A stretch of 52,949 nt of DNA from Polyangiaceae bacterium (GTDB lineage Bacteria; Myxococcota_A; Polyangia; Polyangiales; Polyangiaceae): positions 193,508 through 246,456 of the forward strand of contig JAXLYP010000017.1 in assembly GCA_046351395.1 (NCBI GenBank), in the 5' to 3' direction. Positions 21,720-50,106 of this stretch are shown piece by piece. The translations under genes and the position numbers were made by a program. The notes beneath the pieces were generated by a model. It saw nothing but the letters and a program-made list of their open reading frames with translations. It ran no database searches and had not been told where the DNA came from. The number at the start of each line of letters is the position of its first letter. The first letter of the stretch is position 1.

Positions 21720-23159
21720 ATGAGCAACGCGCCGCGACGATCGTCGAGTCCACCCGATCCCAAAGAGGTCGCCCGGCGCTCCCTCGTCGAACGAGCGCTC
21801 GGGGTGATCACCGAGGTGAGGGCAGGCGAGGGGGGGACCGCACTCCTCATGACGCTCAATGTCTTTCTGCTGCTCACCGCATACTATCTCATCAAGCCGG
21901 TCCGTGAGGGCCTCATCGGGAGCGTGAAGCACGGCCCCGAGTACAAGAGCTACATGGGGGGCGCGGTCGCGCTCGCGCTCTTCGCCATCGTCCCGCTCTA
22001 CGGGATGCTCGCCGCGAGGCTGAAGCGGAACGTGCTCATCTCGAGCGTCTCGCTCTTCTTCGTCGCGAACCTCGTCGGCTTCTGGATGCTCGGCCGCCTC
22101 CCCTGGGTCGCGACCGAGACGGGGGCGACGGTCTATGCGCTCGCGTTCCTCCTCTGGGTGGGCGTGTTCAACCTCATGATCGTCGCGCAGTTCTGGGCGT
22201 TCGCCGCCGACGTGTACACCGACGAGCAGGGGAAGCGGTTGTTCGCGCTCATCGGTCTGGGCGCGTCCGTCGGCGCGGTGATGGGGAGCCTGGTCATGAA
22301 CCGCGTCGTGACCGAGCTCGGCACGGAGCACATGATGCTCGTCGCCGCCGTGACGCTCGCGCTCGCGACGGCGGTGACGCTGCTCATCCATCGGCGCGAG
22401 TCCCGGCGGCCGCGGGCGCCGGACCCGGAGAAGGAGCGGAAACAGCGCGAGGAGAAGGAGGCGAAGCAGAGCAGTCAGGGCGCGTTCTCGCTCGTGCTCC
22501 ACGACCGGTATTTGCTGCTCATCGCGGCGTTCACCGTGCTCTTCCAGATCGTGAACACCAATGGCGAGTTCATCCTCTCGAGCCTCGTGGCGGACGCGTC
22601 GCGCGCCGTGACCGAGACGCGAGAGGAGCAGAAGGCGTGGATCGCCTCGTACTACGGGAGCTTCTTTCTCTGGGTGAACATCGCGGGCGTGGCGATCCAG
22701 ACGTTCCTCGTCTCGCGGATCGTGAAGTGGGGCGGGCTCAAGGTCGGCCTCCTCATCTTCCCCGTCGTCGCGCTCATCAGCGAGGCGGCCATCGCGGTCG
22801 TCCCGGTGCTCCTCCTCGTTCGGATCGGCAAGACGGCGGAGAACTCGCTCGACTATTCGCTCAACAACACGCTCCGCAACGCCCTCTGGCTCCCCACGAC
22901 GACGCGCGCGAAGTACGTCGCGAAGCAGGCGATCGACAGCTTCGTGTCGCGCGTGGGCGACATGGGGTCGGCGCTCGCGATCTTCATCCTCATCGACGCG
23001 CTCCACTTGACCGTGCGAGCGGTCGCGACGCTCAACGCGTGCCTCGTCCTCGCTTGGATCTACGTGTCGATCGAGATCGTCCGCGAGAACGGCAAGCTCA
23101 CCGAGGACGCGAAGGGCAAAGCGCTTTCACGGCTGGAGGCGGCGGGGGCGAGCGCGTGA
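21720..23159 (+). CDS. TLC/NTT-family (Npt1/Npt2-like) nucleotide-transporter-like membrane protein
   Basis: N-terminal signature ...GVITEVRAGEGGTALLMTLNVFLLLTAYYLIKPVREGLIG.... About 12 predicted TM helices and a charged central loop (RRESRRPRAPDPEKERKQREEKEAKQ). The stop overlaps the GTG of the next gene (GTGA). Confidence 0.9.
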   Translation: MSNAPRRSSSPPDPKEVARRSLVERALGVITEVRAGEGGTALLMTLNVFLLLTAYYLIKPVREGLIGSVKHGPEYKSYMGGAVALALFAIVPLYGMLAARLKRNVLISSVSLFFVANLVGFWMLGRLPWVATETGATVYALAFLLWVGVFNLMIVAQFWAFAADVYTDEQGKRLFALIGLGASVGAVMGSLVMNRVVTELGTEHMMLVAAVTLALATAVTLLIHRRESRRPRAPDPEKERKQREEKEAKQSSQGAFSLVLHDRYLLLIAAFTVLFQIVNTNGEFILSSLVADASRAVTETREEQKAWIASYYGSFFLWVNIAGVAIQTFLVSRIVKWGGLKVGLLIFPVVALISEAAIAVVPVLLLVRIGKTAENSLDYSLNNTLRNALWLPTTTRAKYVAKQAIDSFVSRVGDMGSALAIFILIDALHLTVRAVATLNACLVLAWIYVSIEIVRENGKLTEDAKGKALSRLEAAGASA

Positions 23160-34276: not shown

Positions 34277-35062
34277 GTGCCCACGAGACGCGTTGCCCTG
34301 TGGTGTTCGGTTGCGTGCATGTTCGTCGCGGGTTGCGCGAGCTCGAAAGGGGTCGAGCGCGAATCCGCCGGCGACCGCTCCCCCGCGACGAGCCCTGCAC
34401 CGCGGATCTCGCGCGGGCCGATCGTCGTCAACGGCTACCCCACGAATGTCGGAAGTGGGTTCGCCGCCGTCGCGACGTACGCGGGATTCACCCGCGACGG
34501 GCGGGAGCTCGGCCTCTGCTGGAGTGACGGCGCCTCCGACGAGATGCATTGTCGCTTCGAGGACCGCGCGGGGGGCGCACGCGGGTTCGACGCGCCCTTG
34601 GCGACGCAGTTCACAATCGCGAGCGGCGAGGTCGCGACCTGGCTCGCGGCGCAGGGCATCCGGCCGTTCGAGCGAATGAAGGGACCGGACGCCGCCGCGT
34701 GGGACTCGCTGCCGCCGCCGCTCGTCGGAGAGTGGAAGCACCCCGAGATCACCCTCGAAGTGCGGGAAACTCCGCCCGTCGTCGCGCCCGGGGGTGTCGC
34801 CACGACGCCGCCTCGCCTCGAGCTCGGTGGCAGCATGCCTGGCCGCGCGCCCTTCTTTCCCTACGTGTTCGAGCCCGCGGACGATCCGCTCGACGCGCAC
34901 TACATGCAGGCGGTCTTGCTCGCGCTCTCCCCCGATGGGACCGAGCTCGGCCTCATCACACAATCCCCTCGGGGGGAGTACGACACGAGCTTCGTCATCC
35001 GCCGGATCCCACTCGACGACCTCGGGGCTCGCATCAAATTCCGCCGGCCGTGCTGCCGCTGA
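34277..35062 (+). CDS. Lipoprotein, function unknown
   Basis: GTG start; MPTRRVALWCSVACMFVAGC (lipobox). Confidence 0.55.
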   Translation: MPTRRVALWCSVACMFVAGCASSKGVERESAGDRSPATSPAPRISRGPIVVNGYPTNVGSGFAAVATYAGFTRDGRELGLCWSDGASDEMHCRFEDRAGGARGFDAPLATQFTIASGEVATWLAAQGIRPFERMKGPDAAAWDSLPPPLVGEWKHPEITLEVRETPPVVAPGGVATTPPRLELGGSMPGRAPFFPYVFEPADDPLDAHYMQAVLLALSPDGTELGLITQSPRGEYDTSFVIRRIPLDDLGARIKFRRPCCR

Positions 35063-35103
35063 CACGGGGGCGTCCGATGGACGTTCCCTTCACGCCAAGC
35101 CCA

Positions 35104-35850
35104 TCAGAACGAGCCGTGCACGAGGATCCCGGTCGGACCCACCGACACTTCCGCGGTGACACCCGACGTCGCGGCGCGCGCGCCGCGCGTCTCGTCGGGG
35201 ACCTGCTTCGCCCCCACGGCGAGGAGGGGAATGCCGACACCGATCATGGCGATGCCACCGATGAGGAAGCCCGTCGCCACCCCCGATTGCACCTCTGCGT
35301 CCGCGTACCGGGCGTTGCACGCCGCGTCGACAGGGTCGATGCTGCAGGAGTTGGCGAGGGTGTCGTTGGCGAGCGAGAGTCCGATCGCGCTGGCGGTGAG
35401 GGTGACCGCGCCCGTGCCCAAGAGGACGCCGCCCGCGATCATCATCTCGGGGCTGTTCGTTCGCGTAGGACCGACGTATTTCGGAACAGGCGGTCCAACG
35501 GGGACCTGCACCGCTCCCGCGATGGTGAGCGGCAGCCCGACGAGGACGAGCGGACCACCGACGATGGTGCCGAGTGAACCCCAGAGGATGCCGCCCCAAC
35601 CGCCCTCGGCGAACGACACGCCGGCCGTGACGATCCCGACGGTGCCGAGCCCGAGCAGCACGCTGCCGCTGACCACCATCCCGGGGCTGTTCATCCGCGT
35701 CTCCGACTGCGGCGCGGGCGCGGGCGTGCCGGCGGGGGGAAGCGAGGTGATCGTCTCCTCCGCGCGCGTCGTGGACGGGATGGCGAGCGCGAGCGACGTT
35801 GCACAAGCAGCTGCCGCGAGAGGTCCGATGCCGGGCCCTGGTCTCTTCAT
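35104..35850 (-). CDS. Secreted/membrane Gly-zipper protein with an internal duplication
   Basis: Signal peptide. Duplicated units NSPGMVVSGSVLLGLGTVGIVTAGVSFAEG and NSPEMMIAGGVLLGTGAVTLTASAIGLSLAND. Ends ...VHGSF*. Confidence 0.55.
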   Translation of the reverse strand: MKRPGPGIGPLAAAACATSLALAIPSTTRAEETITSLPPAGTPAPAPQSETRMNSPGMVVSGSVLLGLGTVGIVTAGVSFAEGGWGGILWGSLGTIVGGPLVLVGLPLTIAGAVQVPVGPPVPKYVGPTRTNSPEMMIAGGVLLGTGAVTLTASAIGLSLANDTLANSCSIDPVDAACNARYADAEVQSGVATGFLIGGIAMIGVGIPLLAVGAKQVPDETRGARAATSGVTAEVSVGPTGILVHGSF

Positions 35851-36203
35851 GCGGCGAATCAGAACAGGAGCGGCGCCAACGCGAAAGGTGAATGGCGGCG
35901 GGAGCCCGTGGGAGCGAGCTGCCGCCCGAGATCGTTCAGGAAACCGCGCGTCGGTTCAGGGCGGCCGCGCCCAGCGCGATCCTTCAGGGCGTAGCTCGTC
36001 CGCCGCGAAGGTCTCCACAGGGTCGTCGCTCGAGGGCGTCACTCCACGGAGCAGACTCAGGCCACCGGTGTAGTCCAAGGACCACGCGCGCCATTGTCTG
36101 CATACCCAGTGTCGATCGCGTCATCACGCCCGGGTGTCCGCGCGGGACTCGCGGTGGCGAGCGCGTCGTCCGACTGGAGTATCACCGAGCGGGCCGGCTC
36201 TCT

Positions 36204-36423
36204 GACAGTATGGAAATCCATGGTAGTGCGTGGTGACGGCAGCGCGCTTCGAGCGCAGTCGGCGTGATAGGGAGAACCCTTGGTTCGGTGCGCGTGAAAC
36301 GAACCCGCGCCGATCGGGCGCGCTGGTCGCCGAGACAATATGGAAATCCATGGGTTTGGTGAGCCGGATAGGCGGTTCTCGGGACGCGCTGGTTCTTTCC
36401 TCAGACAATATGGAAATCCCTGG
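36204..36423. promoter_or_regulatory. Three direct repeats of a 20-bp AT-rich motif, GACA(A/G)TATGGAAATCC(A/C)TGG, in the 830-bp intergenic region upstream of the histidine-kinase operon
   Basis: Copies at 36204-36223, 36334-36353 and 36404-36423. Each contains the inverted half-sites ATGGA-AA-TCCAT. An A8 tract follows at ~36448. Confidence 0.6.
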
Positions 36424-36679
36424 GCGGCGCGCACGAACGTGGCCGCCGAAAAAAAAGGCGCAGGAATCCCTCCATGGCGGGGACGAGGAATATCTCTCTC
36501 GCTCCACGACGGTCGCGCGCATTTCAGGTGTGTTGGTTTGATGGGTTGCAATGGACGCAATCGCTGCGGACGAATGCAGGTCTTGCGCGTCTCGCGTCTG
36601 CCGTGAAGTACCCCCCTTGGGATGGAGTCTAGCGCAGGAGGCCGTCGTCGTGGTGTGAAAGCTGCAGCCGCTGAGGGGC

Positions 36680-37753
36680 GTGACGACCTCCATTCCGCCA
36701 GCGTTCGACGAGGCGCTCGACCCTGCTCCGAGATGTGAGGACGCCGTCGCCATCCTGGACGCGCTCAGCGCTGCGGTGCTCGCGGCGCGCTCCGACGGCG
36801 TCATCACGTGGGCGAACCCATGGGCTGCGCGCGTCCTCCGGCGCTCACGGGCCTCGATCATCGGGCGAAACCTCGCGGATGTGCTGCCTCTCTCGTTCGC
36901 GGTCGGGGAGGACACGCCCTCGGAGCACCGCCGCGGTGAGCTCACTTATCAAGCGGACGACGGCTCCCGTTGTCAGCTCGGATTTTCGCTCGCTCGGCGG
37001 GCCGTCACGGCGCCGGACGAGGTCGCCATCATCGCGCTGTTCCAAGAGATCTCGAGCCTCATCGAGCTGCGACGCCAGCGCGATCGACTCCTCCAGATGG
37101 CGGCGCTCGGGGACGCCCTCCCAGCGGTGCTCCACGAGGTCCGCAACCCGCTCGCGGCGATCACCACGGCGCTGGAGGTTTTGACCGAAGACGAGGGGCC
37201 GCTGCAAGCGGATCTCCACGCGGTTCTGAACGAGGCGCGCCGCGCCACCCTGACGCTCGACGGGCTCGGGGGCCTCGCGCGCGAAACCCACAGTCGGAAG
37301 TGGGAAGCCATCGATCACGCGGTCGCGGAGGCCACCCGAGTGCTCGAACCCACCGCCGCGAGGCGGGGTATTTCCCTTCGAACGACGGGGCCGGCGCTCC
37401 CGCTCCTGCCGCTCGATCGCGCGGCGATCAGCGGCGTGGTGTTCAATCTCGTGCGCAATGCCATCGACGCGTGCGGCGAGGGTGATGTGGTCGCCGTCGA
37501 GGCCCGTTTGCCGTCGCCGAACGAGTTCCTGCTCGAGGTTCGCGACACGGGCCATGGCATGTCCGTTCCCATCGTGAAGCGCTGCACGGAGCTCTTCTTC
37601 ACGACGAAGGATACCGGGTCTGGGATTGGGCTCGCATTGTGCAAGCGGTTCGCGGAGTCGTCGGGAGGATCGCTGGAAGTGGAGAGCGAACTCGGGCGGG
37701 GGACGACGGTATCGGTTCGCGTCGCTCTCCGCACCGACGCACGAGGAGGGTGA
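36680..37753 (+). CDS. Cytoplasmic PAS-domain sensor histidine kinase
   Basis: H-box LHEVRNPLAAI, N-box NLVRNAIDA, DTGHGM, GSGIGLALC. GTG start. Confidence 0.85.
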   Translation: MTTSIPPAFDEALDPAPRCEDAVAILDALSAAVLAARSDGVITWANPWAARVLRRSRASIIGRNLADVLPLSFAVGEDTPSEHRRGELTYQADDGSRCQLGFSLARRAVTAPDEVAIIALFQEISSLIELRRQRDRLLQMAALGDALPAVLHEVRNPLAAITTALEVLTEDEGPLQADLHAVLNEARRATLTLDGLGGLARETHSRKWEAIDHAVAEATRVLEPTAARRGISLRTTGPALPLLPLDRAAISGVVFNLVRNAIDACGEGDVVAVEARLPSPNEFLLEVRDTGHGMSVPIVKRCTELFFTTKDTGSGIGLALCKRFAESSGGSLEVESELGRGTTVSVRVALRTDARGG

Positions 37754-37754
37754 C

Positions 37755-38120
37755 ATGTCACGTGTCGACAACCTGAACAAGATTCTACGTGGGCTGCAGA
37801 GCGCTTCGCCGGACGTCGAGGCGAGCGCGCTCATCTCGGACGATGGGCTCATGATCGCGAGCGCCCTGCCACAGCACATCGACGAGACGCGCGTCGCCGG
37901 GATGAGCGCCACGCTCTCGAGCCTGGGTACGCGCGCGGCGGCCGAGCTCGAGCGCGGCAACGTCGAGGAGGTCCTCGTGCGGGGCTCGAACGGCTATGCC
38001 GTCATGCTCGCCGCGGGGTCCGGGACGCTCCTCTTGGTCCTTGCGAGCAAGCAGGCGAAGCTCGGCCTCATCTTCCTCGACATGCGTCGGGCGGTCGACG
38101 ACATCCGTCGCGTCCTCTAG
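37755..38120 (+). CDS. Roadblock/LC7 (MglB-like) domain protein
   Basis: SD ggaggg lies 4 nt upstream of the ATG. ...LISDDGLMIASAL...LLLVLASKQAKLGLIFLDMRRAVDDI is typical roadblock-domain sequence. Confidence 0.8.
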   Translation: MSRVDNLNKILRGLQSASPDVEASALISDDGLMIASALPQHIDETRVAGMSATLSSLGTRAAAELERGNVEEVLVRGSNGYAVMLAAGSGTLLLVLASKQAKLGLIFLDMRRAVDDIRRVL

Positions 38121-38266
38121 ACCCGTTCGAGAAGCGAGCAGATCCCCGGGCCCGGGCGCGACAAAGCGTCATCGGGGTGACGCCCGAGCGTCATCGTTTT
38201 GACAGTCTTCGCGCGATCCACGCGTTAGAACGTACCCAACAGCCGATCGATAGGAGGGGGTCTTCG

Positions 38267-39026
38267 ATGCCCAATACGATTTTGTTCGATCAAGGTGCCC
38301 ACAAGAACGTCCTGCTCGAGGACGTGTCCGCGGGCAGCCACGCCCGTACAAGCCAATCAGCACGTCATCGTCGACCACGCGTCGGGCATGATCCTCGACC
38401 CGGGCGGACACAAGGTCTACTCGAAGGTCCTCTCCGGCACGCTCGCCACCCTCGGCAAGGCGAAGCTCGAGATCCTGTTCCTGTCGCACCAAGATCCGGA
38501 CATCGTCGCCGCGACGAATGGCTGGCTGATGACCACGGACGCCGTGGGCTACGTCTCCGCGCTGTGGACTCGGTTCGTCCCGCATTTCGGGCTCGATCAC
38601 CTCGTCCAGTCCCGCCTCCTGCCGATCCCGGACGAGGGCATGCGGATGAAGCTGGGCCAGAGCGAGCTGCTCATCCTCCCCGCGCACTTCCTCCACTCGC
38701 CGGGAAACTTCCACGTCTACGACCCCGTCTCGAAGATCCTCTACAGCGGCGATCTCGGGGCATCCATTGGTGGGGATTACGTCGAGGTGACCGACTTCGA
38801 CGCGCACCTCCCACTCATGGCGGGGTTTCACCGGCGCTACATGGCTGGGGGGGCCGCGATGCGCGGCTGGGCGAAGATGGTCCGCCAGTTGCCGATCGAG
38901 ATCATCGCGCCGCAGCACGGGGCGCTGTTTCGCGGGAAGGAGATGGTCGATCGGTTCATTGGATGGTGCGAGGGCATGCAGTGCGGACTGGATGTGATGG
39001 GCGATGGTTACCGCATCCCCGCTTGA
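38267..39026 (+). pseudogene. MBL-fold (ODP/flavodiiron-N-terminal-like) protein with a +1 frameshift near 38340
   Basis: A strong SD (aggaggggg) precedes ATG 38267. The first frame reads MPNTILFDQGAHKNVLLEDVSAGSHA... and then switches to the 38295 frame: ...VQANQHVIVDHASGMILDPGGHKVYS...FLSHQDPDIVAATNGW.... Removing one C from the ccc run at ~38344-38346 restores a continuous protein. Confidence 0.65.
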
Positions 39027-40158
39027 GTCCCCGCGCCGCACCGTGCTCGTCGTGGAGGACGAGCCGATGCTGCGCGCCTCGATGGTCAAGGGGCTCGCGA
39101 AGCTCTCGTCGGTCGCGCTCGTCGACGCCGGCTCGCTGCGAGAGGCGCGGCGACTCGCCGAGCTGCACCGCCCCGTGCTGGTCGTGAGCGATCTCGACCT
39201 GCCCGACGGCTCGGGGATCGAAATGGCGTCGACGCTCGACGAGCTCGGTCTTCGCGTCCCGATCCTGTTCGTGTCGGCCTACGTGCGGGAGTACCAGGGG
39301 CGATTGCCGAAGCGGCCGGGGATCGAGGTCTACGAGAAGCCGCTGCCCCTCGAGCGCCTTCGGAGCGCGGTGGAGGCGCACCTCGGGATCGAAGCCGAGG
39401 CTTCGCCGTTCGGTGTGATCGACTTCGTCCAGCTCGCCGGCATGGGGCGGCGCTCGGTCGTCATCGAGGTGCGAGGCCGGATCGCGGGGAGCGGGCGAAT
39501 CGTCATCCGCGCGGGCGAGGTGTGGTCGGCGCGCGACGAGCGGGGCGAAGGAATGGAAGCGTTCAAGCGCCTCGCGTTCCTTCGGGACGCGGTCGTCACG
39601 TGCCGCTCGTTCGATCGTCGCGACTCGTCTCCTCGCATCATCCAAGGGGGCTGCGAGAGTGTCCTGCTCGAGGCGGCGCGCCAGTACGACGAAGCGGGCG
39701 GGGCGCCGCCGGAGCGCGACGAGCTCGGCGACCTCGACGAGGGCTGGGACTCCCGAGACGCGGGCCGCGGTGACAGCTGGGAAGGCTCCGCGCGGTCGCA
39801 CGACCCCGTCGTCTCGTCCACGCCGGTGCCGCCCGGCCGGCATCGGTCCGAGGTTCGCCCGGTCGTGCCGGAGCCCCGAGGGGAATGGCGCTCCGCGACC
39901 CTGACGCCCGCGGTCGACGAGCCGCCGCCGACTCAGCCCTCGACGCGACTTCGTGACGTCGATCCGCGCGAGCTCGCGACGGTCGCACGGCTCGCGGCGG
40001 GGTTCTCCGACGTGTACGAGCGGGGCGTCGACGCGCTGCTCGCGAAGGACTATCGCAAAGCGTACGCGGCGTTCCTCGAAGCGCGAGAGCTCTCGCCGGA
40101 GGACCGGCGGGTCGAAGCGAACCTCGTCCGCCTCCGAGAGATGGGGTTCGGAACGTGA
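39004..40158 (+). CDS. Response regulator (REC) with a C-terminal DUF4388-like domain and a TPR-like tail
   Basis: REC motifs VLVVEDEP, VVSDLDLPDGSG, K in EKPL. Then FGVIDFVQLAGMGRRSVVIEVRG...GRIVIRAGEVWSA...GMEAFKRLAFL. The stop overlaps the next GTG (GTGA). Confidence 0.8.
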   Translation: MVTASPLESPRRTVLVVEDEPMLRASMVKGLAKLSSVALVDAGSLREARRLAELHRPVLVVSDLDLPDGSGIEMASTLDELGLRVPILFVSAYVREYQGRLPKRPGIEVYEKPLPLERLRSAVEAHLGIEAEASPFGVIDFVQLAGMGRRSVVIEVRGRIAGSGRIVIRAGEVWSARDERGEGMEAFKRLAFLRDAVVTCRSFDRRDSSPRIIQGGCESVLLEAARQYDEAGGAPPERDELGDLDEGWDSRDAGRGDSWEGSARSHDPVVSSTPVPPGRHRSEVRPVVPEPRGEWRSATLTPAVDEPPPTQPSTRLRDVDPRELATVARLAAGFSDVYERGVDALLAKDYRKAYAAFLEARELSPEDRRVEANLVRLREMGFGT

Positions 40159-40817
40159 GGCGCGCCGCGTTCGCCGTTCCCGGAGAGGAACTCGGAGTAT
40201 GGGCGCCCGCCACGCTCCTGTCGTGCGGCGCCCTGGGCGCGGTCGTCGTCGCGGTCCTCCTCGGATCCCCCGCCGTCCCCGCGGAGGCGAGCTCGATGTC
40301 GCGCGCGACGCCGGGCGCGGAGGGCGCCGCAGCGACGGTGTCCACGGACGCGATCCGCCCGCCGACCGCGCCGTCGATCGCGCCGCCGCCGCCTGCACCG
40401 AGCGCGATCGCTGCACCCCCGGGCCCCTCGGGGTCGGGCGGGGCGATCCCTCAATGTCCACCCGTGCGGGTGGGCTTCCAATCGAACGCGTTCGGCCCGA
40501 GCCCCGCGGCGATCACCGAGCTCGACCGGCTCGCGGCGTGGCTGCGCGAACATTCGGACACGACGCTCGTCGTGAGCGGGCACGCCGACGCGGTGGGCAC
40601 GGAGGACGGCAATTTGCGCCTCAGTCACATCCGCGCGGAGTCGATCGCGCGAGAGCTCTCGGCGCGAGGGGTGGCTCGGAGCCGCATGACGGTGCGGGGG
40701 TATGGAGCCTATCAGCCCCTCGAGGGCGTGCTCGAGGACGCCGCAGACAATCGAAGGGTCGTCATCTATGTCCGCGGGGATTGTCTCCGCGGCTTCGAGG
40801 AGGTCATAGGACCATGA
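40155..40817 (+). CDS. OmpA/MotB-like peptidoglycan-binding domain protein with an N-terminal membrane anchor
   Basis: VVSGHADAVGTEDGNLRLSHIRAESIARELSARGVARSRMTVRGYGAYQPL...NRRVVIYV. Confidence 0.8.
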   Translation: MRRAAFAVPGEELGVWAPATLLSCGALGAVVVAVLLGSPAVPAEASSMSRATPGAEGAAATVSTDAIRPPTAPSIAPPPPAPSAIAAPPGPSGSGGAIPQCPPVRVGFQSNAFGPSPAAITELDRLAAWLREHSDTTLVVSGHADAVGTEDGNLRLSHIRAESIARELSARGVARSRMTVRGYGAYQPLEGVLEDAADNRRVVIYVRGDCLRGFEEVIGP

Positions 40818-41746
40818 TCGTGACACTCACCTTGGTCACCGTGGGCGCGGCGTCCGCGTTGCTGGGCTCGGGATACCTCTTCGGTGCGCGGCGGGGGCGA
40901 ACGGCGCGCGCTGCGCTCGCGGCGCACGCGGAGTCGCGCGAGGTCGCGCTGCGCGAGGCGGAGTCGAGGCTGTCGCTCGAGCGGCGGACGGCGGAGAGCG
41001 ACGCGGCGCGAAGACGGGAGCTCGAGTCGATCCTCGTCCCGCTCACGCGTCAAACCCAGACCTCGAACGAGGAGCTCGAGAAGGTGGAGGAGCTCAAGCG
41101 AGAGGTGCGGGCGATCGCCCGGTCCCTCGCGGAGCGCGACAGCCATCAAGACGAGCTCCGACGCGAAGTCCGGGGCGCGCTCGCGTCGTTCGCGAAGCAG
41201 CCCGGGGACGAGGCGAAGCTCGAGGGCCACGTGCGACGGCTCGTCGCGCCGCTCCTCCAGCGCGAGGAGCAGTCGGAGAAGCTGCGCGACGCGCTGCAGG
41301 AGGTGCTCCGACCCATGATCGAGCGGGAGCGCATGGGACGCGATCTCGCGCGCCTCCCGCCGTCCACGAGCGGGCTCGGCGGGCTCCCCAAGCTGCTCGA
41401 CGCGATCGCCGAGCGGGGCGGGTTCACCGCGGTGGTGCTGAGCGACGACGTGGGGCTCCCGCTCGCGGCGAGCGCGGGCGCCCTGGACGTCGAGACGCTG
41501 GCGGGCTCCTCGTCGCTGCTCCTCACGCTCGCGGACCGCGCCGCGCGCGATGGCGCACCCCCGCCCCAGGCGGTCGTCGTTCGCGACGCGTCGAACCAGA
41601 CACTCCTTCACCGCATCTTCCGCGTCGGGGACGAACGCTTCATGCTGACGGCGGTCGCCCGCGGCGTCGAGATCGCGACGGGCGCGCTGGATCCGGCGCT
41701 TGGAACGCTGGAGCGCGCGCTCGCGCGCAACAACATCGCGGCGTGA
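40814..41746 (+). CDS. Membrane-anchored coiled-coil protein with a C-terminal roadblock-like domain
   Basis: ATG overlaps the upstream stop (ATGA). TM MIVTLTLVTVGAASALLGSGYLF. Heptad-rich middle region. C-terminal GGFTAVVLSDDVGLPLAASAG...LLHRIFRVGDERFMLTAVA. Confidence 0.6.
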   Translation: MIVTLTLVTVGAASALLGSGYLFGARRGRTARAALAAHAESREVALREAESRLSLERRTAESDAARRRELESILVPLTRQTQTSNEELEKVEELKREVRAIARSLAERDSHQDELRREVRGALASFAKQPGDEAKLEGHVRRLVAPLLQREEQSEKLRDALQEVLRPMIERERMGRDLARLPPSTSGLGGLPKLLDAIAERGGFTAVVLSDDVGLPLAASAGALDVETLAGSSSLLLTLADRAARDGAPPPQAVVVRDASNQTLLHRIFRVGDERFMLTAVARGVEIATGALDPALGTLERALARNNIAA

Positions 41747-41797
41747 TCCGCGGAGGGGCGCGGGCCGGCCCCTTGGACGCGGGGCAAACACACCCCG

Positions 41798-42376
41798 CTA
41801 TTGGAACCGGAGCTCGCGGACGAACGCGTAGGTCTTGGGCGCGAGCCGCAGCTGAAAGCTCTGTCCGCCCTCGTTCGCGCGCGACTCGAGGTCTTTTTTG
41901 TAGCGCACGGTGACGACCACGTTCCCCTCGGCGTCGGTTCCTTCGATCGTGTGCGTCCAGGCGTCGGCGGGCCACGCTCGCTTGTCGGAGACGTACGCTT
42001 CGACGGCGATCGCGACGCGCGCGTCGTCGATGTCGTCGGGCCACGGCATGACGAGTTTGCTCTCGCCGGGCGCGATGGGGCCGACGTGATCGAGGACGGA
42101 TGCGTACTTGGGATCGCCCGGCGCGTACTTCCTTTGCGCGGGCGCGGGCCGGAAGAGATCGAGGACGATCGTCCCGTCCGGGAGCATCCTCGCTTGACCA
42201 ATCGCTTCCATGGGACCTCCGCTCGACGCTGGGGCCGATGGTAGCCGCCCTTCCGCGCTTGGCGCGACGGACGCACCCGCGGGCGCCGACGGGGATCCCG
42301 TGGGTGTCCGAGGATCGGCGGAGGAGCAGGCGAAGAACGTGAGGGCGAGGGCGAGGGCCGAACCCGGGAAACGCAT
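41798..42376 (-). CDS. Lipoprotein, function unknown
   Basis: MRFPGSALALALTFFACSS. Lies 8 nt downstream of the hydroxylase stop. Confidence 0.6.
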   Translation of the reverse strand: MRFPGSALALALTFFACSSADPRTPTGSPSAPAGASVAPSAEGRLPSAPASSGGPMEAIGQARMLPDGTIVLDLFRPAPAQRKYAPGDPKYASVLDHVGPIAPGESKLVMPWPDDIDDARVAIAVEAYVSDKRAWPADAWTHTIEGTDAEGNVVVTVRYKKDLESRANEGGQSFQLRLAPKTYAFVRELRFQ

Positions 42377-42384
42377 GCGCGGTT

Positions 42385-43050
42385 CTACGGGCTCGCGGCC
42401 GCCGCGGTCTGCCCGGCTCCGTCGTTTCCTGTGGGCTCGACGACCGGGCTCGCCCCGGTGTCGCGGGCGCGACCCACGAGCTCGTAGTCGTGCTCGAATT
42501 CGGCGCGGACGGCGCCGCGCTCGTCGACCAACCAGGTCGGGGCGACGTGGCGGGGCACTTTGATGCGCTCGGACGGCACGTGACTCCGGAACGCGACGTC
42601 CCAGAGCGGGCTCGTCACACCGTGGTTGAGGCGGGGCGTCTTGTGGTGGTGCAAGAGGTGATGCCGGCGCGCCCAACGCCCGTACGCCGTGGTCGGGGGC
42701 CGCGTGTGGATCCAGCGGTGGAGGACCTCGTACCCGCCATAGACGAGGGAGAAGCCGGCGGCGAACGAGAGGGCGCGACGCGGTCCCACGAGGGGCGTGA
42801 GGGCGCCGCCGAGGAGAGGGATAGCGACCGCGGCGGCGCGCACTTTGCGCGCGGTGGGCGCGAAATAGGTCGGGGTCGCGTGGTGGGCGAGGTGCTCGGC
42901 GTTGAACTCCGCCGCGAGCCCCGAGGGCGTGAGCTTCTCGAGGAGGTTCGGCTTGAGCGCGCGCTTCGGTCCGTGACCGACGAACCGATGAATCGCGTAT
43001 TCGCTCGCCGACCAGCCGAGCCCGCCGAGCGCCATCCAGAGTATCGACAT
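42385..43050 (-). CDS. Fatty-acid hydroxylase / sterol-desaturase-superfamily membrane protein
   Basis: His boxes HRFVGH, EHLAHH, HRWIHT, HHLLHHH. SD gaaggga upstream; the ATG shares one nucleotide with the TetR stop (TGATG). Confidence 0.75.
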   Translation of the reverse strand: MSILWMALGGLGWSASEYAIHRFVGHGPKRALKPNLLEKLTPSGLAAEFNAEHLAHHATPTYFAPTARKVRAAAVAIPLLGGALTPLVGPRRALSFAAGFSLVYGGYEVLHRWIHTRPPTTAYGRWARRHHLLHHHKTPRLNHGVTSPLWDVAFRSHVPSERIKVPRHVAPTWLVDERGAVRAEFEHDYELVGRARDTGASPVVEPTGNDGAGQTAAAASP

Positions 43051-44918: not shown

Positions 44919-46043
44919 GTGAGCTCCTACCGAGACGAGCGCGAGGCGCTCCGAGCGCGCGTCGACTCCCTCCAGACGGACGTCGATGGGAAGCAGCGCG
45001 AGCTCGACGCGCTGCGCGCCGCGGGGCCTCCGGCCGAGCGCCTCGACGAGATGGAGCGGCAGGTCGCGGAGGCGCAGCGCGAGATCAAGCGCATGCGCGC
45101 GGCGTATGGGCCGCCGCGATCCCGGTGGCGCGGTGTGGTCGCGGGGGTCGTCGTCGGCGCCGGGGTCGCGACGGGCGTGATGCTCCTCGTGAGAACGAGC
45201 TCCGATCCCGCGCCCGTTTCGGTGGCGTCAGGGAGCGCTCGCCGTGTGAGCCTCGGGTCGTCCGCCGCGGCGGACGTGCGACCGCCACCACTACCTCTGC
45301 CTCCGACTCCGGCGCCGTCCGCGTCGGCGCGACCGTCGCGCACGATGCAGACGGCGTGGAACGCGAAGGTGAAGCGCGCGAAGGGAGCGCCCGTCGCGCT
45401 GGGGGCGCCGTGCGTCGTGAGCGCGACGCTCGTCGAGGACGGGGCGGTCCACGCGTGGGGCGTCTCGGTGAAGTGCGGGGAGGTCTCGCTCTACTCGGCG
45501 AAGGACACGTTCAACGGGACGTCGTCGATCGTGTCCTCGGTGGAGGAGGAGAAAGGGCCCAAGGGGTTCGCTCGCGCGCTCGCGTACGAGGACAAGGGCG
45601 ATCGATCGGGGCGGAGCCAAATCTCGATCGCGACGTGGGACCACGCCGCTCGCGTTTGGGACGAGGGCGTGCGCGCGATGGAGGTGGAGCTCGACGTCGA
45701 CGCGTTCGACGCGCCCACGGAGGAGCACTTCGATCCGAGGACGGGGACGCGGTGCGCGCGCACGAGCGGAGGCGCGCGCGTGAAGAGCGTCGAGGGTATG
45801 CCGGGCGTGCTCGTGGGCGCGCGGTGCACGGTCGCGACGGAGCCCGCGGACGCGGAGTGCAGGGTGACGGTGAAGTGCGGCACGACGCTGCTCTACGATC
45901 GCGGCTTCGCGCCGGTCATCGACGGGGTCATCATGGACGACGCGCCGACCTCGAGCGGGGGCGACCCGCGCCTGCGAATCGAGGGTCGGTCGGTGCTCGT
46001 GTCGGACGAGGGGTGGTCGGTGGGAATCGAGCGCGACAAGTAG
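44919..46043 (+). CDS. Membrane protein: N-terminal coiled coil, one TM helix, duplicated Cys-containing extracytoplasmic domain
   Basis: GTG start. LRARVDSLQTDVDGKQRELDALRAAG...; TM VVAGVVVGAGVATGVMLLV. Duplicated CVVSATLVEDGAVHAWGVSVKCGEVSLYS / CTVATEPADAECRVTVKCGTTLLYD. Confidence 0.55.
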   Translation: MSSYRDEREALRARVDSLQTDVDGKQRELDALRAAGPPAERLDEMERQVAEAQREIKRMRAAYGPPRSRWRGVVAGVVVGAGVATGVMLLVRTSSDPAPVSVASGSARRVSLGSSAAADVRPPPLPLPPTPAPSASARPSRTMQTAWNAKVKRAKGAPVALGAPCVVSATLVEDGAVHAWGVSVKCGEVSLYSAKDTFNGTSSIVSSVEEEKGPKGFARALAYEDKGDRSGRSQISIATWDHAARVWDEGVRAMEVELDVDAFDAPTEEHFDPRTGTRCARTSGGARVKSVEGMPGVLVGARCTVATEPADAECRVTVKCGTTLLYDRGFAPVIDGVIMDDAPTSSGGDPRLRIEGRSVLVSDEGWSVGIERDK

Positions 46044-47180
46044 ATGAACGCACCGCTCTCATGGCCGGTGACGGTGTTCTTCGTCCTCGTGTTCGGGGTG
46101 CTTCTCCCGCTCGGGGTCGCGGTCATCGCCGCGATCCGCGTGAGAGGGTACCTCGCGCGAGCGAGGCATTTTCGGGACGCGGCGAGCGCGCCGTTCACCG
46201 GTCGCCCGGGGCCCGCCGTGCTGAGCGGGCGGACGCGATGGATCGAGCCCGCGGAGTGCCCGGTCCACGTGACGATCACGCAGGCGGGATCGGAGCGGAC
46301 CGCGAAGGGCAACCCGTACGTCGCGTGGACGGAGCAGGGCCGGCGCGCGCACTTCGCGCCGTTCGAAGTGGAGACGGGGAAGACCCCGATCCGCGTCGAG
46401 CCGGACGACGAGACGCTGTACGCGGACGCGCTGGACGAATCGGAGATTGTCGGTCCGGGTGTCCGTGAGAAGCGAGCGCGCCTGAGTCAGGGCGAGCCGG
46501 TGTGGATCGAGGGAGCGCTACGGCCGACGCGCAACCGGACGGGGGCGGCGACGGCGTATCGGGGCGCGGTGGCGACGGATCCGGAGTCCGTCACGCGCCC
46601 GCTCGTGTTCATGCGCAAGCCGTTCGAGCCGCTGGTGATCCACACGTCGCCTCCTGGGCAGGAGCAGCGATCGCGCATTTTGTTCAACGTCGCGGCGATC
46701 GCGGGCGCGATCGCGGTGTTCCTCGCGATGAACCTCGTGGTGAACCGGGACTTCGTCGACTCGCTGCTCCACGGCCGGGTCGCGCTCGGGGTGGCGACGG
46801 GGCGGCGGACGGAGATCGGCGCCCGGAGCAAGACGGGGGCGGTGATTCGGCTCGTGCACTTCGTGACGTTCGAGCTTCCGCCGAGCGAGCTCGAGCGGAC
46901 GGTCGAAGCGCGCACGGATCCGGAGACGTACGCCGAGGTCGAGCAAGACGAGCACACGCGCAAGACGTGTAGCCGGCTGGTCCGGTACACGCCGGGGGAT
47001 CCGTGGAATGCGGTGCTCGGAGAGCGCCCCCTCGCGCGGTGGTGGGTGGTGGTGGTGTCGCCGATCGTGATGATCCTCGCGGCCGCCTACTTCCTTCAAG
47101 AGCGGAACCTCAGGCCCTGGTACGAGGGGAGGAAGCTGAACGAGACGGAGCCCGGGCGGCTGCCGTGGAGCCCGCGCTGA
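46044..47180 (+). CDS. Membrane protein (3 TM segments), function unknown
   Basis: ATG follows the upstream TAG directly. The 3' end overlaps the AraC 3' end by ~70 nt (convergent). Confidence 0.55.
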   Translation: MNAPLSWPVTVFFVLVFGVLLPLGVAVIAAIRVRGYLARARHFRDAASAPFTGRPGPAVLSGRTRWIEPAECPVHVTITQAGSERTAKGNPYVAWTEQGRRAHFAPFEVETGKTPIRVEPDDETLYADALDESEIVGPGVREKRARLSQGEPVWIEGALRPTRNRTGAATAYRGAVATDPESVTRPLVFMRKPFEPLVIHTSPPGQEQRSRILFNVAAIAGAIAVFLAMNLVVNRDFVDSLLHGRVALGVATGRRTEIGARSKTGAVIRLVHFVTFELPPSELERTVEARTDPETYAEVEQDEHTRKTCSRLVRYTPGDPWNAVLGERPLARWWVVVVSPIVMILAAAYFLQERNLRPWYEGRKLNETEPGRLPWSPR

Positions 47181-48072
47181 CGGGCGCCGCGTGGACGGAT
47201 TGGATGTACGCGCTCGGTGATGCGCCGACGACGCGCTTGAAGTCGCGCGCGAAGTGGGCCTGATCGGAGTAGCCGAGGGCGAGCGCGAGATCGGCGAGGG
47301 ATGGGGGCGAGGGGGCCTTGAGGCGCTCCGCGGCTTCATGGAGTCGATAGCGAGCGAGCACCCACTTCGGGGTGACGCCGACGAAGCGCTGGAACTGGCG
47401 CTGGAGGGTGCGGACGTCGACGCGCGCGATCCGCGCGACGTCCTCGACGCGCACGAGGGTTCGATCCTCGGAGATCCGCTCCACGAGGTCGCGGACGCGC
47501 GCGATCTCGACGGGGGGGCGCTCGAGGCGGGGGCGGAGGAAGGCTTCGGACGCGTCGATCCGCGCCGCGGTGTCCGGGAGGGATGCGATGAGGCGCCCGA
47601 GCTCGATTCCAGGGGCGCCGAACAGGTCCTCGATGGGGACGACCTTCCCCGTGAGGGTGTGGAGCGAGCGCCCGAGGACGGGGTGGAAGCAGGCGGGTCG
47701 GAATTTGATGCCGAACACCCAGCCATCCCCGTGGAGCGTGCGCTCGAAGCGCGCGCGGGGCACGCCGCTCACCTCGGCGGTCGGGGCGCGTCTGGATTGC
47801 TGGCTCTCGAAGAGGATGTGGACCGTGGGGTGCGGGAGCGTCGCGGCGGTGAAGGGGGCACGAAGGGCCCATTGGACGCTCCAGAAGTGGGCGATGCTGT
47901 GCGCGAGCGCGGCGGAAGGCGCGACGCGATCGTGATGTGTGGTGCCGTTCGGTGCGGGCGGATGGGCGTGAAGGACGCCTCTCGGCGGACCGAGTCGGGG
48001 GCTCTGCGAGCTGAACCGGTCGTGGGCCGACGAACTGAGTGCACGTGCGGGCCGAGGCGTCAGACCCGTCAT
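47110..48072 (-). CDS. AraC-family transcriptional regulator with an N-terminal effector domain
   Basis: HTHs ARIARVDVRTLQRQFQRFVGVTPKWVLARYRLHEA and LADLALALGYSDQAHFARDFKRVVGASPSAY. Start uncertain (ATG at ~48072). Confidence 0.7.
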   Translation of the reverse strand: MTGLTPRPARALSSSAHDRFSSQSPRLGPPRGVLHAHPPAPNGTTHHDRVAPSAALAHSIAHFWSVQWALRAPFTAATLPHPTVHILFESQQSRRAPTAEVSGVPRARFERTLHGDGWVFGIKFRPACFHPVLGRSLHTLTGKVVPIEDLFGAPGIELGRLIASLPDTAARIDASEAFLRPRLERPPVEIARVRDLVERISEDRTLVRVEDVARIARVDVRTLQRQFQRFVGVTPKWVLARYRLHEAAERLKAPSPPSLADLALALGYSDQAHFARDFKRVVGASPSAYIQSVHAAPVSAGSTAAARAPSRSASSPRTRA

Positions 48073-48427
48073 CGTAGGTGAAGGAGCGCGACTCGGGGGG
48101 GTTGGGTGGGCCCCCACTCGCGCGCTGGCGCGCGCGGTCTCCCCCTTGTCCGTGCTCGGGCGCGCCCGCGGCGGTGACTTTTTCGTGCGGGGCGCTCGTG
48201 CGGCGCGCCCTGCGCGCGGACGGGGGAGACAGGTCCGACTCACCCCACCCGCTGGATCGTGTGGCGACGATCGACAAGACCCGGTCGCGGCTCCGAGGGT
48301 GCCTCCATGTCGCGAGCCCGGGCTTCAATGCGGGGTATCGGGGGACCGCTCTCCTCGCATCTTGGAGGCGGTAGCCGCCCCCTCGCGCCTATCGCGCGCG
48401 GCGACTCACGTCGCGCGGGGTGCGGTG

Positions 48428-48477
48428 AAGACTCATGCCCCCAAGTTCCCACGTGCGCGAGATGGACACTACTGCGC
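48428..48477. repeat. Conserved ~50-nt element, copy 1 (paired with 50164..50215)
   Basis: gaagactcatgcccccaagttcccacgtgcgcgagatggacactactgcgc versus gaagactcatgcccccaagtcttcttacgtgcgcgagatggacgctattgcgc. Copy 1 overlaps the stop of the 48469..50106 gene and lies ~350 bp upstream of the AraC start. Confidence 0.7.
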
Positions 48478-50106
48478 GGGAAGCTTCAGCGTCTCCGCGC
48501 CGGATCCGTCGTCGCCCTTGCCGCCGGCATCCGATGCACCACCCAGCCCGCCGCCCGCTCGCGTGGACGTGAAGCCAGCGGCCGGTGCCGAGGTCACGTA
48601 GGCGATTGCCAACGAGTGTCCGCCGTGGCCGCCGCCACCCGCGCCGCCATTGCTGCCCTGGCCTCCCTTGCCTCCATCGCAGGCCGTCGGGGTGCCGGCG
48701 CCAGAGCCGGCATTGCCGCCCTTTCCGCCGACCGCACCAAACTGTCCAGCTGCGCCGCTTCCGCCGGCGCCACCCTTGCCGACGGTGAAGCTCACGCCCG
48801 AGAGAGTTGGGGCCGCGCCCAGGACGATCATCCCGATGCTCGCGCCCCCAGCGCCGCCTCCGGGGGCTCCGTGGCCCCCGCAACCGCCCGCGCCGCCGCC
48901 GCCCCTGCTCGCGCCGCGAATGTCTGCGAGAGGCGGCGTCACGTCCTTGAGTCCCTTCGCGCCGCCGCCTCCGCCTCCGAGGCCGGGACGCCCGTCCTCG
49001 CCGACTCCGCCGGAAGCTCCTGCGTAGCCCATCGAGGAGATTGTCCCCGGCAGGGTCGCGTTCGGGCCCGGCATGACGGAGGCGCCGTTGGAGCCCTGAT
49101 GTCCGGGCGCGCAGCCACCCCCCATGTCACCAGGTCCTCCCACGCCATCATTCCCCGCCACAATCGGGGGCGTTGGCGTCGCAGTCCCATCATCACCCTT
49201 TATGCCGTCGCTTGCGACCGCAACGACCTTTCCACCCTCTCCTCCAGCCCCGCCAGTGGTCGTGCAAAACGGGTTCGTCCCCGGGAGTCCACCTGGATTG
49301 GTCATGGTCGGCGTGGTCGTGTTGGCGTCGGCCCCGACGCCGCCCGCGATGGGGGCGGCCATCGAGTTTGTCGGACCGATGTTGTCCGTCGGCGTGGTGC
49401 TGTCCTGTCCCGCGGCAGCGTCGCCCGTCTCCACGTCCACGTCCGCAAACACGGACGGGACCTCGCCCACGATCACTCCAATCGCGCTCGAGCCCGGCGC
49501 CGCGCCCGCAGTCGCAAGGACCTTCAGGCGGTCGACCTCCGTCGTCCCCTGACCATCCGCCAGCCTCAGGCCGATCTCGCCCGCATCCGGCTCGAGCGTG
49601 GTGCGCGCGTCCGCCGCCTTGATCTTGTACCCCGCCGAACAATCCAGGCCGCCATACACGACCACCCCCGCCGGAAGCACGATGCCGCTCGTGTCCGTCA
49701 GCGCGCCCTCACAGACATAGATCGTCTTGCCCGCCGTCCACGCGATGACCGCGGCGCTCAACGTCTTGAGGGGCGCCGCCATCGTCCCCGCCTGCATGTT
49801 GTCGCCCCCCACCGGGTCGACGAACACCCCGCACGAGTCCCCCTTCGTCGGACCGCTCGTCAGAGACACGGCGCAGTCCATCGACACCCCCGTGCTGCTC
49901 GACGTCATCGTCGCGGATGACGAATTCGTCATGCTCGCCGCCGTCGTACTCGAGGTCGCGCCTCCTGCGCCCCCGGAGCAAGGAGCCGAGTGATCCGCGC
50001 AGGAGTCCGTGGACTCCGAGGGGCACCCGGCCATGAGGCTCGCGAGCGCGAGCGACGCCACGAGCGCGCAGGCGCTGGTCTTGATGTGCGAACGAGGAAG
50101 CGTCAT
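48469..50106 (-). CDS. Gly-rich repeat lipoprotein
   Basis: MTLPRSHIKTSACALVASLALASLMAGC. Long GGxGG / PGxxG-rich C-terminal half. Paralogue of 50299..51897. Confidence 0.7.
   Translation of the reverse strand: MTLPRSHIKTSACALVASLALASLMAGCPSESTDSCADHSAPCSGGAGGATSSTTAASMTNSSSATMTSSSTGVSMDCAVSLTSGPTKGDSCGVFVDPVGGDNMQAGTMAAPLKTLSAAVIAWTAGKTIYVCEGALTDTSGIVLPAGVVVYGGLDCSAGYKIKAADARTTLEPDAGEIGLRLADGQGTTEVDRLKVLATAGAAPGSSAIGVIVGEVPSVFADVDVETGDAAAGQDSTTPTDNIGPTNSMAAPIAGGVGADANTTTPTMTNPGGLPGTNPFCTTTGGAGGEGGKVVAVASDGIKGDDGTATPTPPIVAGNDGVGGPGDMGGGCAPGHQGSNGASVMPGPNATLPGTISSMGYAGASGGVGEDGRPGLGGGGGGAKGLKDVTPPLADIRGASRGGGGAGGCGGHGAPGGGAGGASIGMIVLGAAPTLSGVSFTVGKGGAGGSGAAGQFGAVGGKGGNAGSGAGTPTACDGGKGGQGSNGGAGGGGHGGHSLAIAYVTSAPAAGFTSTRAGGGLGGASDAGGKGDDGSGAETLKLPAQ

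Follow-up and report, generated by a model that had tools for sequence, protein, structure and literature searches.

An uncharacterised operon, conserved in uncultured myxobacteria, that groups two roadblock-fold proteins with an ODP-family protein, a histidine kinase and a REC-PATAN regulator

Roadblock proteins form dimers that serve as platforms, in most cases for small GTPases, and 328 of 749 surveyed MglB homologues are "orphans" that are not linked to mglA, none of which had been characterised at the time of that survey (PMC4316618). In the conservons, a roadblock protein is encoded together with a kinase, a DUF742 protein and a GTPase, and kinases that lack a sensor are controlled by stand-alone accessory proteins (PMC13343842). 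Genes for PATAN proteins are known neighbours of MglB homologues (PMC4316618); PATAN-REC regulators bind PilB, the motor of the type IV pilus, and a PATAN protein of Myxococcus xanthus is required for social motility (bioRxiv 10.1101/2021.06.11.447907). The ODP of Treponema denticola, for its part, is a stand-alone O2 sensor whose target is a soluble receptor, to which it is genetically coupled, and it influences the order of CheA (PMC7666581). Here we describe a locus in which elements of all these systems meet. It occupies positions 36680–41746 of a 52,949-nucleotide stretch of DNA from a Polyangiaceae bacterium (assembly GCA_046351395.1, contig JAXLYP010000017.1, positions 193,508 to 246,456; this whole stretch, with a G+C content of about 70%, is called the window below). 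Six genes, all on the plus strand by a check of the open reading frames (ORFs), encode a histidine kinase (HK), a stand-alone Roadblock/LC7 protein (Robl), an ODP-family protein, a response regulator (RR) with REC and PATAN (DUF4388) domains, an OmpA-like protein, and a protein here called gene 6, with a transmembrane (TM) segment, long helices and a divergent roadblock domain. The operon is real, conserved in uncultured myxobacteria and uncharacterised, as literature searches combining its domain names or Pfam accessions returned no description of the gene set. We suggest, at a probability of roughly 0.45, that it encodes a sensor, tethered to the envelope and scaffolded by roadblock proteins, which responds to O2 (or to a related cue, namely redox state, NO or Fe(II)) and signals through a two-component phosphorelay.

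Related loci were gathered by context look-ups and one scan of species-representative genomes, and 45 of them were mapped by tblastn, using as queries the window proteins together with the protoglobin and EAL proteins of one relative (L001). All are metagenome-assembled genomes (MAGs), mostly of Polyangiaceae, Labilithrix or "Myxococcales", with a few labelled Chromatiaceae or Alphaproteobacteria (Roseiarcus, Siculibacillus). The order Robl-ODP-OmpA-gene 6 is essentially universal across about 45 loci, the overall plan being Robl-[protoglobin]-ODP-[REC-PATAN]-OmpA-gene 6 with the kinase upstream, and most Polyangia loci carry the same six genes as the window. The flanking genes, by contrast with this constant order, differ in every locus. 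The recurrence of this order in some 45 loci, which come from different species, goes far beyond what chance would give, and the initial annotation was right to treat the six genes as one cluster. Conservation within the cluster is uneven: identity to the window proteins is 77–92% for Robl, about 70% for ODP, and 40–55% for HK, RR, the OmpA-like protein and gene 6.

Several relatives show further peculiarities. One Polyangiaceae MAG (L010, 3966–13901) carries two complete six-gene operons in tandem, head to tail, and the copies have diverged, their variable genes being about 45–54% and 38–54% identical to those of the window. Genes related to c-di-GMP, and further O2-related ones, occur next to some operons: in L001 gene 6 overlaps at its end with a REC-EAL gene (8909–10213), an EAL gene lies upstream in L013 (1979–3109), and a REC-GGDEF gene lies upstream in L043 (845–2446) together with a gene for a hemerythrin.

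The candidate sensor is the product of the third gene, which matches the ODP family (PF19583) at E 3e-67 over profile positions 1–194 of 194, and Lactamase_B as well. The window gene is FRAMESHIFTED in this sequence, and the homologous start, MPNTILFDQGAHKNVLLEDVSAGSHA, is out of frame with what follows. Compared with L006, a locus 79% related, and also with a relative designated P0183, the gene has a single extra C, and with it a +1 frameshift, in the CCC run at 38343–38345. As sequenced, the gene is a 243-aa ORF from the GTG at 38295, to which NCBI gives the name "MBL fold metallo-hydrolase" (MBL, metallo-beta-lactamase), and the first 26 homologous codons, from the ATG at 38267, lie in another frame. 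Removal of one C gives a protein of 252 aa; relatives encode 251–253 aa, and P0183, from an independent assembly, has an intact ODP of 252 aa that is 97% identical. The lesion is either an assembly error in the homopolymer or real. ODP genes also appear split by tblastn in L009 (5783–6519) and L025 (5371–6113), suggesting possible frameshifts; if indel errors are perhaps common in such assemblies, this would favour an artefact in the window too. The corrected protein aligns over residues 3–248 with the solved ODPs (6qrq/6qwo, E 1.6e-69; 6qnm/6r9n, 5e-63) at about 50% identity, and the segments HQDPD, HFLHS, SGDLGA (SGDxGA) and PQHG are all identical in it and in both crystallised ODPs. As in the MBL fold generally, HQDPD, H-x-x-H-S, SGD and PQHG would hold the metal ligands.

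A second, unrelated gas-binding protein is found at the same place in other loci. A gene for a 180-aa protoglobin lies between Robl and ODP in five loci, a protoglobin stands in place of ODP in L004 and L035, and the protoglobin of these relatives has the proximal-histidine motif RIGLAHVRIGL. Neither the window nor its nearest relative, L006, has a protoglobin, and no remnant of one was found in the 146-nt gap between Robl and ODP or in the whole window. Either of two unrelated gas-binding proteins, or both, can occupy the slot between Robl and RR, and this is our strongest reason for regarding the slot as a sensory input, with O2, or some related diatomic or redox signal, as the cue. The initial annotation had offered an "envelope-anchored gas-sensing complex" as one reading of the cluster, and the insertion of a protoglobin beside ODP, or its substitution for ODP, at one and the same position gives that reading independent support.

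Robl itself is a clear member of Robl_LC7 (PF03259; 2e-15, 56.7 bits against a cut-off of 23) and, across Polyangia relatives, is the best-conserved component of the cluster. Such unusually high conservation fits a hub that contacts several partners. Its matches among solved structures are a roadblock protein of Thorarchaeota (7f8m, E 2e-31), CvnB5 (3leq, 5e-11) and MglB (8e-4). The first of these was proposed by its authors to be a scaffold for protein-protein interactions (PMC10933270). As counted from the alignment, Robl and 7f8m are about 50% identical over their full length; this closeness, far above that to M. xanthus MglB, may be striking conservation across domains of life, horizontal transfer or contamination.

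The second roadblock domain, at the C-terminus of gene 6 (NCBI MFO0616362.1, locus tag U0414_27470), could be recognised at the level of fold. The protein begins directly with a hydrophobic helix followed by RRGR, at a conserved boundary (GYLFGARRG in the window, GYLFGxRRG in the family alignment), and is predicted to be anchored by its N-terminus with the remainder in the cytoplasm. An AlphaFold2 model built from an alignment of 55 homologues (pLDDT 87) has long helices over residues 2–179, then an alpha-beta-beta-alpha-beta-beta-beta-alpha domain at 188–309 (pLDDT 94–97 over 190–300) containing the motifs LPKLLDAIA and VVLSDDVGLP. Foldseek returned 74 matches in the PDB at E<=1e-3, the best being M. 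xanthus MglB (E 1e-6, probability 1.00, target-normalised TM-score 0.69), with Asgard roadblocks, Thermus thermophilus MglB, LAMTOR2/3 and the C-terminal domains of Rag/Gtr also at probability 1.00. By sequence the domain is elusive: neither Pfam (E<=0.1) nor NCBIfam finds a roadblock in the window protein, a sequence search of the PDB gives coiled-coil noise alone, and the likeness to Robl is weak by BLASTP, with an E value of 0.029 when compared with the Robl family by hhalign. Relatives score better, one (P0242) matching Robl_LC7 just at the threshold with 23.4 bits and the L036 orthologue with 19.4 bits, and several family members have weak LAMTOR5 matches. On the predicted fold and these better-scoring family members, the C-terminus of gene 6 is a divergent roadblock domain at the fold level. 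An exhaustive profile search among 1.84 billion cluster representatives yielded 348 for the family, 168 of them at E<=1e-30; all 348 match through the C-terminal domain, and they fall into two length classes of about 300 and about 200–260 aa. The domain calls of the initial annotation for HK, Robl_LC7, ODP, REC-DUF4388 and OmpA are reproduced by Pfam; its second roadblock domain is borne out by fold and not by profile search, so that its "membrane coiled-coil roadblock protein" was the right description at the fold level, as the model, Foldseek and the profile matches of family members indicate.

In two closely related MAGs labelled Alphaproteobacteria (L036, 4975–5985; L037, 2828–3826), the roadblock domain is the C-terminus of an ORF of about 335 aa. 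Its N-terminal 70 or so residues are conserved, an acidic linker of low complexity is also present, and neither has a Pfam match; the extension is only putatively coding.

Gene 5 matches OmpA (PF00691; 1e-14, 54.7 bits against a cut-off of 27.2), and its C-terminal domain is YiaD/Pal/MotB-like by NCBIfam, with a peptidoglycan-binding segment that includes GHAD (142–145) and NLRLSHIRA (153–161). An N-terminus of 16 residues precedes a single strongly hydrophobic segment, an Ala/Pro-rich linker and the OmpA domain, from which a topology with the N-terminus inside and the peptidoglycan-binding domain in the periplasm is predicted. Directly before the TM segment lies a near-invariant G-E-[DE], present in the window (40155–40250) and in 26 related loci, 27 in all; it recalls the acidic residue that MotB, ExbD and TolR need for function where their TM helix meets the cytoplasm. 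A stator of that type was set aside, as neither the window operon nor any related locus encodes a polytopic partner of the MotA/ExbB/TolQ type. The ATGA overlap of the OmpA and gene 6 reading frames, which implies translational coupling, together with a conserved juxtamembrane motif in each protein, supports a partnership between the two.

The kinase matches PAS (3e-6), HisKA (7e-7) and HATPase_c (6e-21), is closest in NCBIfam to kinases of the AtoS/NtrB type, and retains an H-box (LHEVRNP, 151–157, with His152), an N-box (NLVRNAIDA) and the G1 (DTGHG) and G2 (GSGIGL) motifs. Hydropathy gives it no TM segment (maximum KD19 1.40), indicating a cytoplasmic protein, and its relatives are about 50% identical. 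The regulator matches Response_reg (3e-12) and DUF4388/PatA_N (PF14332; 7e-6, 26.5 bits against a cut-off of 25), the latter over profile positions 7–121 of 122 and in its orthologues also. REC (residues 14–123) precedes PATAN (136–231), and a Pro/Arg-rich linker and a C-terminal TPR-like hairpin, a weak Pfam TPR match, follow. The receiver is intact, with the acidic pocket E19/D20, acceptor Asp63, S91 and K112 (in VVEDE, VVSDLDLPDG, FVSAY and YEKP), and Pfam finds no DNA-binding domain. An HK gene accompanies 26 of the 27 REC-PATAN genes with readable upstream DNA, the exception being L038, and none of the six RR-lacking loci with readable upstream DNA; in L035, where the HK is missing, the PATAN protein lacks REC. 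This joint presence and absence of HK and REC argues, from gene content, that HK and RR are a cognate pair.

From these components a tentative path for the signal can be drawn, in which we infer every physical interaction, as well as what is bound, which way regulation runs and what the output is. The input would be the stand-alone di-iron ODP, whose conformation would change with ligand or oxidation state and which a protoglobin would join or replace in relatives. ODP would pass its state by protein-protein contact to the small, extremely conserved Robl, and Robl would pair with the roadblock domain that gene 6 bears at its tip. The solved roadblocks returned by our searches (MglB, LAMTOR2/3 and the Rag C-terminal domains) are all obligate homo- or heterodimer platforms, and exactly two kinds of roadblock domain occur in every locus. 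Since roadblock domains dimerise and each locus has exactly two kinds, a heteromeric platform is plausible, held by gene 6 and fixed to the wall through its OmpA-like partner: gene 6 would form a coiled-coil stalk in the inner membrane beside the single-pass, peptidoglycan-bound OmpA-like protein. This fixed platform may recruit or modulate the soluble PAS kinase, which would phosphorylate the REC-PATAN regulator. As the regulator lacks a DNA-binding domain, and by analogy with PATAN proteins, it may act through protein-protein interaction, rather than by binding DNA, on a membrane-associated machine such as a pilus motor. The likeliest class of target would be a type IV pilus or motility apparatus. 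Of all the steps the output is the least certain, and a connection with polarity or motility would be an analogy drawn from what PATAN and roadblock proteins do elsewhere.

Several findings weigh against this reading. Eight loci (L008, L021, L024, L027, L030, L036, L037 and L039) have the four-gene core of Robl, ODP, OmpA and gene 6 with neither HK nor RR, so that the phosphorelay is dispensable and the core needs either its own output or unlinked partners. In L040, on a contig of 12.8 Mb, HK, Robl, ODP and RR are followed by a 381-aa homologue of gene 6 (hhalign probability 100) and no OmpA gene is present, and L038 has its RR with no HK nearby. The kinase has a PAS domain of its own and may sense independently. 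The ODP frame is broken in the window and, if the lesion is real, this copy of the operon may lack its sensor. To our knowledge, moreover, the bacterial roadblock proteins characterised so far act on GTPases, and one could be encoded elsewhere in the genome.

This last point leads to the alternative that survives best, which we nevertheless consider rather unlikely: a conventional small-GTPase module, with Robl and/or gene 6 serving as the GAP/GEF (GTPase-activating or nucleotide-exchange) platform of an unlinked MglA/SofG-like GTPase, and with ODP and HK/RR tuning an O2-responsive switch of polarity or motility. Both proteins have the MglB/roadblock fold, Myxococcota typically encode several GTPases of the MglA family, and an RR accompanied by two different roadblocks may parallel the RomR-MglC-MglB set of M. 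xanthus. The frequency of orphans among MglB homologues (328/749; PMC4316618) is also in keeping with a GTPase encoded at a distance. The loci themselves speak against it. An MglA sequence was used as a tblastn query, a G1-G3-G4 regular expression was run on six-frame ORFs, and the Pfam content of neighbouring genes was inspected; none of these turned up a Ras-like GTPase in the 619 kb made up of the 52.9-kb window and the 45 loci, a search that covers the loci and not the genomes. The absence of an adjacent MglA-type GTPase, first remarked in the initial annotation, thus extends to every related locus. Robl is far nearer to the Thorarchaeota roadblock and to CvnB than to MglB (2e-31 and 5e-11 versus 8e-4) and, at 121 aa, is presumably too short for the C-terminal extension of M. 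xanthus MglB. The further idea that the HK/RR pair stands in for the GTPase did not hold up: as eight loci keep Robl-ODP-OmpA-gene 6 without it, the two-component pair looks like an add-on and not the core switch.

The same eight loci lend themselves to an alternative that we think unlikely, namely that the four-gene core acts as the effector in its own right, forming an inner-membrane structure that is controlled by O2 and anchored to peptidoglycan (for example a tether, or something stator-like, with ODP-dependent assembly or conformation), for which HK/RR would be a lineage-specific read-out. The HK/RR-free loci include MAGs labelled Alpha- and Gammaproteobacteria, and the OmpA-like protein has a MotB/ZorB-like topology with its near-invariant G-E-[DE] at the cytoplasmic end of the TM segment. 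Against such a structure, no locus supplies a partner of the MotA/ExbB/TolQ type, gene 6 has a single TM segment, and no recognisable enzymatic or mechanical output domain is present. Under the proposed sensor pathway, the persistence of the four genes without HK/RR argues that Robl, the sensor, the TM-OmpA protein and the TM-coiled-coil-roadblock protein are the core assembly.

We give little credence to a third alternative, in which ODP is an enzyme, either an O2- or NO-scavenging di-iron protein or an MBL hydrolase, and the cluster serves a response to envelope or oxidative stress under an ordinary two-component system. The MBL fold, a distant similarity to flavodiiron proteins (2q9u, E 5e-4; NorV in NCBIfam, 2e-4) and the name given by NCBI are consistent with it, but the similarity to sensor ODPs is 60 orders of magnitude stronger, there is no flavodoxin or rubredoxin domain or partner, a protoglobin, which is not a hydrolase, substitutes for ODP, and the RR has no DNA-binding domain. 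That the six genes are merely fortuitous neighbours, as the 146-nt gap between Robl and ODP might suggest, is effectively refuted by the order kept across about 45 loci amid ever-differing flanks, by the three overlapping junctions and by the duplication of the whole operon in L010.

The operon gives one clade of orphan roadblock proteins a testable context, with defined neighbours, a plausible input (O2 via ODP or protoglobin) and a plausible read-out (phosphorylation of the PATAN regulator). ODP, an oxygen sensor described until now only as an accessory of chemotaxis in spirochaetes and Thermotoga, would be extended to a classical two-component pathway, and the relatives offer a rare natural case in which unrelated gas-sensor folds, two in number, are exchanged at a single position of a pathway. 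Possible, though on balance doubtful, is the more specific proposal that the two roadblocks, one soluble and one mounted on a membrane-anchored coiled coil, form a GTPase-independent scaffold fixed to peptidoglycan, a prokaryotic counterpart to Ragulator/MP1-p14. Through it the ligand state of an interchangeable gas sensor (di-iron ODP or heme protoglobin) would govern kinase signalling at a fixed place in the cell or, where only the four genes are present, act directly on the envelope. Were it true that a roadblock pair works without a GTPase, the fold could no longer be taken, as it usually is, for a sure sign of a GTPase regulator. The system is restricted to lineages that are known from metagenomes only, within a phylum noted for social motility and development that depend on oxygen; the mechanism is inferred and the host range is narrow and uncultured.

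The coordinates of the genes are given in Table 1. The HK stop codon (TGA, 37751–37753) is separated by 1 nt from the Robl ATG at 37755; the Robl TAG ends at 38120, 146 nt before the ODP ATG at 38267; the RR ATG at 39004 precedes the end of the ODP TGA at 39026, giving an overlap of 23 nt; and RR/OmpA and OmpA/gene 6 overlap as GTGA and ATGA. These recomputed junctions agree with the initial annotation in the three overlaps, while its 4-nt spacer between HK and Robl proved to be 1 nt and the 146-nt gap had gone unmentioned. No sigma-70-like promoter consensus was found inside the cluster, and the Robl-ODP gap has neither a promoter nor a terminator consensus. The scan for promoters and terminators was uninformative, with no promoter, three terminator-like sites against 2.1 expected and no convincing terminator inside the cluster, and an Rfam scan of 35000–42500 returned just one chance-level snoRNA match.

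Table 1. Features of the six-gene operon, in window coordinates.
Feature	Coordinates	Strand	Description
Histidine kinase (HK)	36680..37753	+	357 aa; PAS-HisKA-HATPase_c
Stand-alone Roadblock/LC7 protein (Robl, gene 2)	37755..38120	+	121 aa
Intergenic gap Robl/ODP	38121..38266	.	146 nt
ODP-family gene (gene 3)	38267..39026	+	252 aa after removing one C
Response regulator (RR, gene 4)	39004..40158	+	384 aa; REC + PATAN/DUF4388
OmpA-like protein (gene 5)	40155..40817	+	220 aa; bitopic, periplasmic OmpA domain (predicted)
Gene 6	40814..41746	+	310 aa; TM (predicted), about 150 aa of long helices, C-terminal divergent roadblock domain 188–309 (fold level)

Downstream of the operon a convergent gene ends 52 nt away, and upstream lies a divergent intergenic region of 829 nt. 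Within the latter, an AT-richer island upstream of the kinase holds three copies of GACARTATGGAAATCC (at 36204, 36334 and 36404, within 36200–36423), with an extended similarity of 24 nt and an inverted-repeat core, ATGGAnnTCCAT. The chance expectation for this motif is zero, and none was found in the remaining window or in 39 related loci; the array may be an operator for a local regulator. By Pfam, the neighbouring genes encode a PQQ/BamB-like protein, lipoproteins, a fatty-acid hydroxylase, a TetR protein and a YkuD protein. A known defence system was considered and rejected, PADLOC giving nothing beyond a generic MotB-like similarity of the OmpA domain. Elsewhere in the window are a 573-aa protein (26076–27797) with a zinc ribbon at its N-terminus, a Ser/Thr protein kinase domain and, at its C-terminus, an FGE-sulfatase (formylglycine-generating-enzyme-like) domain, a 940-aa protein (7693–10515) with a TLC ATP/ADP-transporter-like region fused to HEAT repeats, and a 479-aa MFS/TLC-like protein (21720–23159). 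The GC skew flips within 46000–50000, from +0.17 (46–48 kb) to -0.11 (48–52 kb), which is probably a change of coding strand and not a replication landmark.

Set beside the described systems, the operon may be compared with the conservons (CvnA-CvnB-CvnC-CvnD, with accessory CvnE/CvnF), in that its HK gene adjoins a stand-alone roadblock gene whose product resembles CvnB5 (3leq), and in that stand-alone accessory sensors serve kinases without extracytoplasmic sensor domains there (PMC13343842). In the six proteins and their neighbours, however, there is neither a CvnD GTPase nor a CvnC/DUF742 protein. The window kinase is a soluble PAS-type protein and not a membrane protein of the HAMP type, its C-terminus (RVALRTDARGG) has no LPxR motif (PMC4316618), and the operon has an RR, which conservons do not (PMC4316618). 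It adds ODP or protoglobin, a TM-OmpA protein and a second, membrane-anchored roadblock, and it belongs to Myxococcota, not Actinomycetota.

The polarity module of M. xanthus (MglA-MglB-MglC-RomR/RomX), from the same phylum, likewise has two different roadblock-fold proteins and a REC protein with a Pro-rich linker and a conserved C-terminal segment, and MglB is the best structural match of the gene 6 domain. The window operon differs in having no linked MglA, in its clustering with a kinase and a gas sensor, in an RR that carries PATAN, and in one roadblock that is coiled-coil and membrane-anchored by prediction; the sequence similarity to MglB is marginal (8e-4).

With the ODP-receptor chemotaxis systems of T. 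denticola and Thermotoga maritima the operon shares an ODP of the same family, about 50% identical over its full length and with conserved metal-site segments, and a stand-alone sensor whose gene lies next to that of its presumed partner in signalling (PMC7666581). There, however, the partner is a soluble methyl-accepting chemotaxis protein (MCP) feeding CheA, whereas the window operon has no MCP, CheA or CheW and instead has roadblocks and a classical HK/RR pair. The PatA-type regulators (PixG, PixE, PatA) and SgnC of M. xanthus also combine REC and PATAN in one regulator that does not bind DNA, and PATAN genes lie near MglB homologues. In the window RR the order is REC-PATAN and not PATAN-REC, a Pro-rich linker and a TPR-like C-terminus are added, no che genes lie near the operon, and an interaction with PilB is only putative.

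The gene neighbourhoods of Group 1 Rup GTPases (Wuichet & Sogaard-Andersen, 2015) are alike in their coiled-coil protein, TM-OmpA protein, and kinase or c-di-GMP output gene, for which the REC-EAL gene of L001 may be compared. Those clusters are built on a Rup GTPase and have no roadblock or ODP, and the window operon is the reverse. In eukaryotes, Ragulator/MP1-p14 is a membrane-anchored assembly of roadblock dimers that positions kinases at the membrane; LAMTOR2/3/5 are among the structural and weak sequence matches, and the likeness would be one of analogy only. The window operon has no Rag GTPases and would be anchored by a TM helix and a peptidoglycan-binding partner, and not by lipidation. 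By the features that define them, the operon is not a conservon, an MglA/MglB module or a PatA-type chemotaxis regulator, and it shares logic with each of the three.

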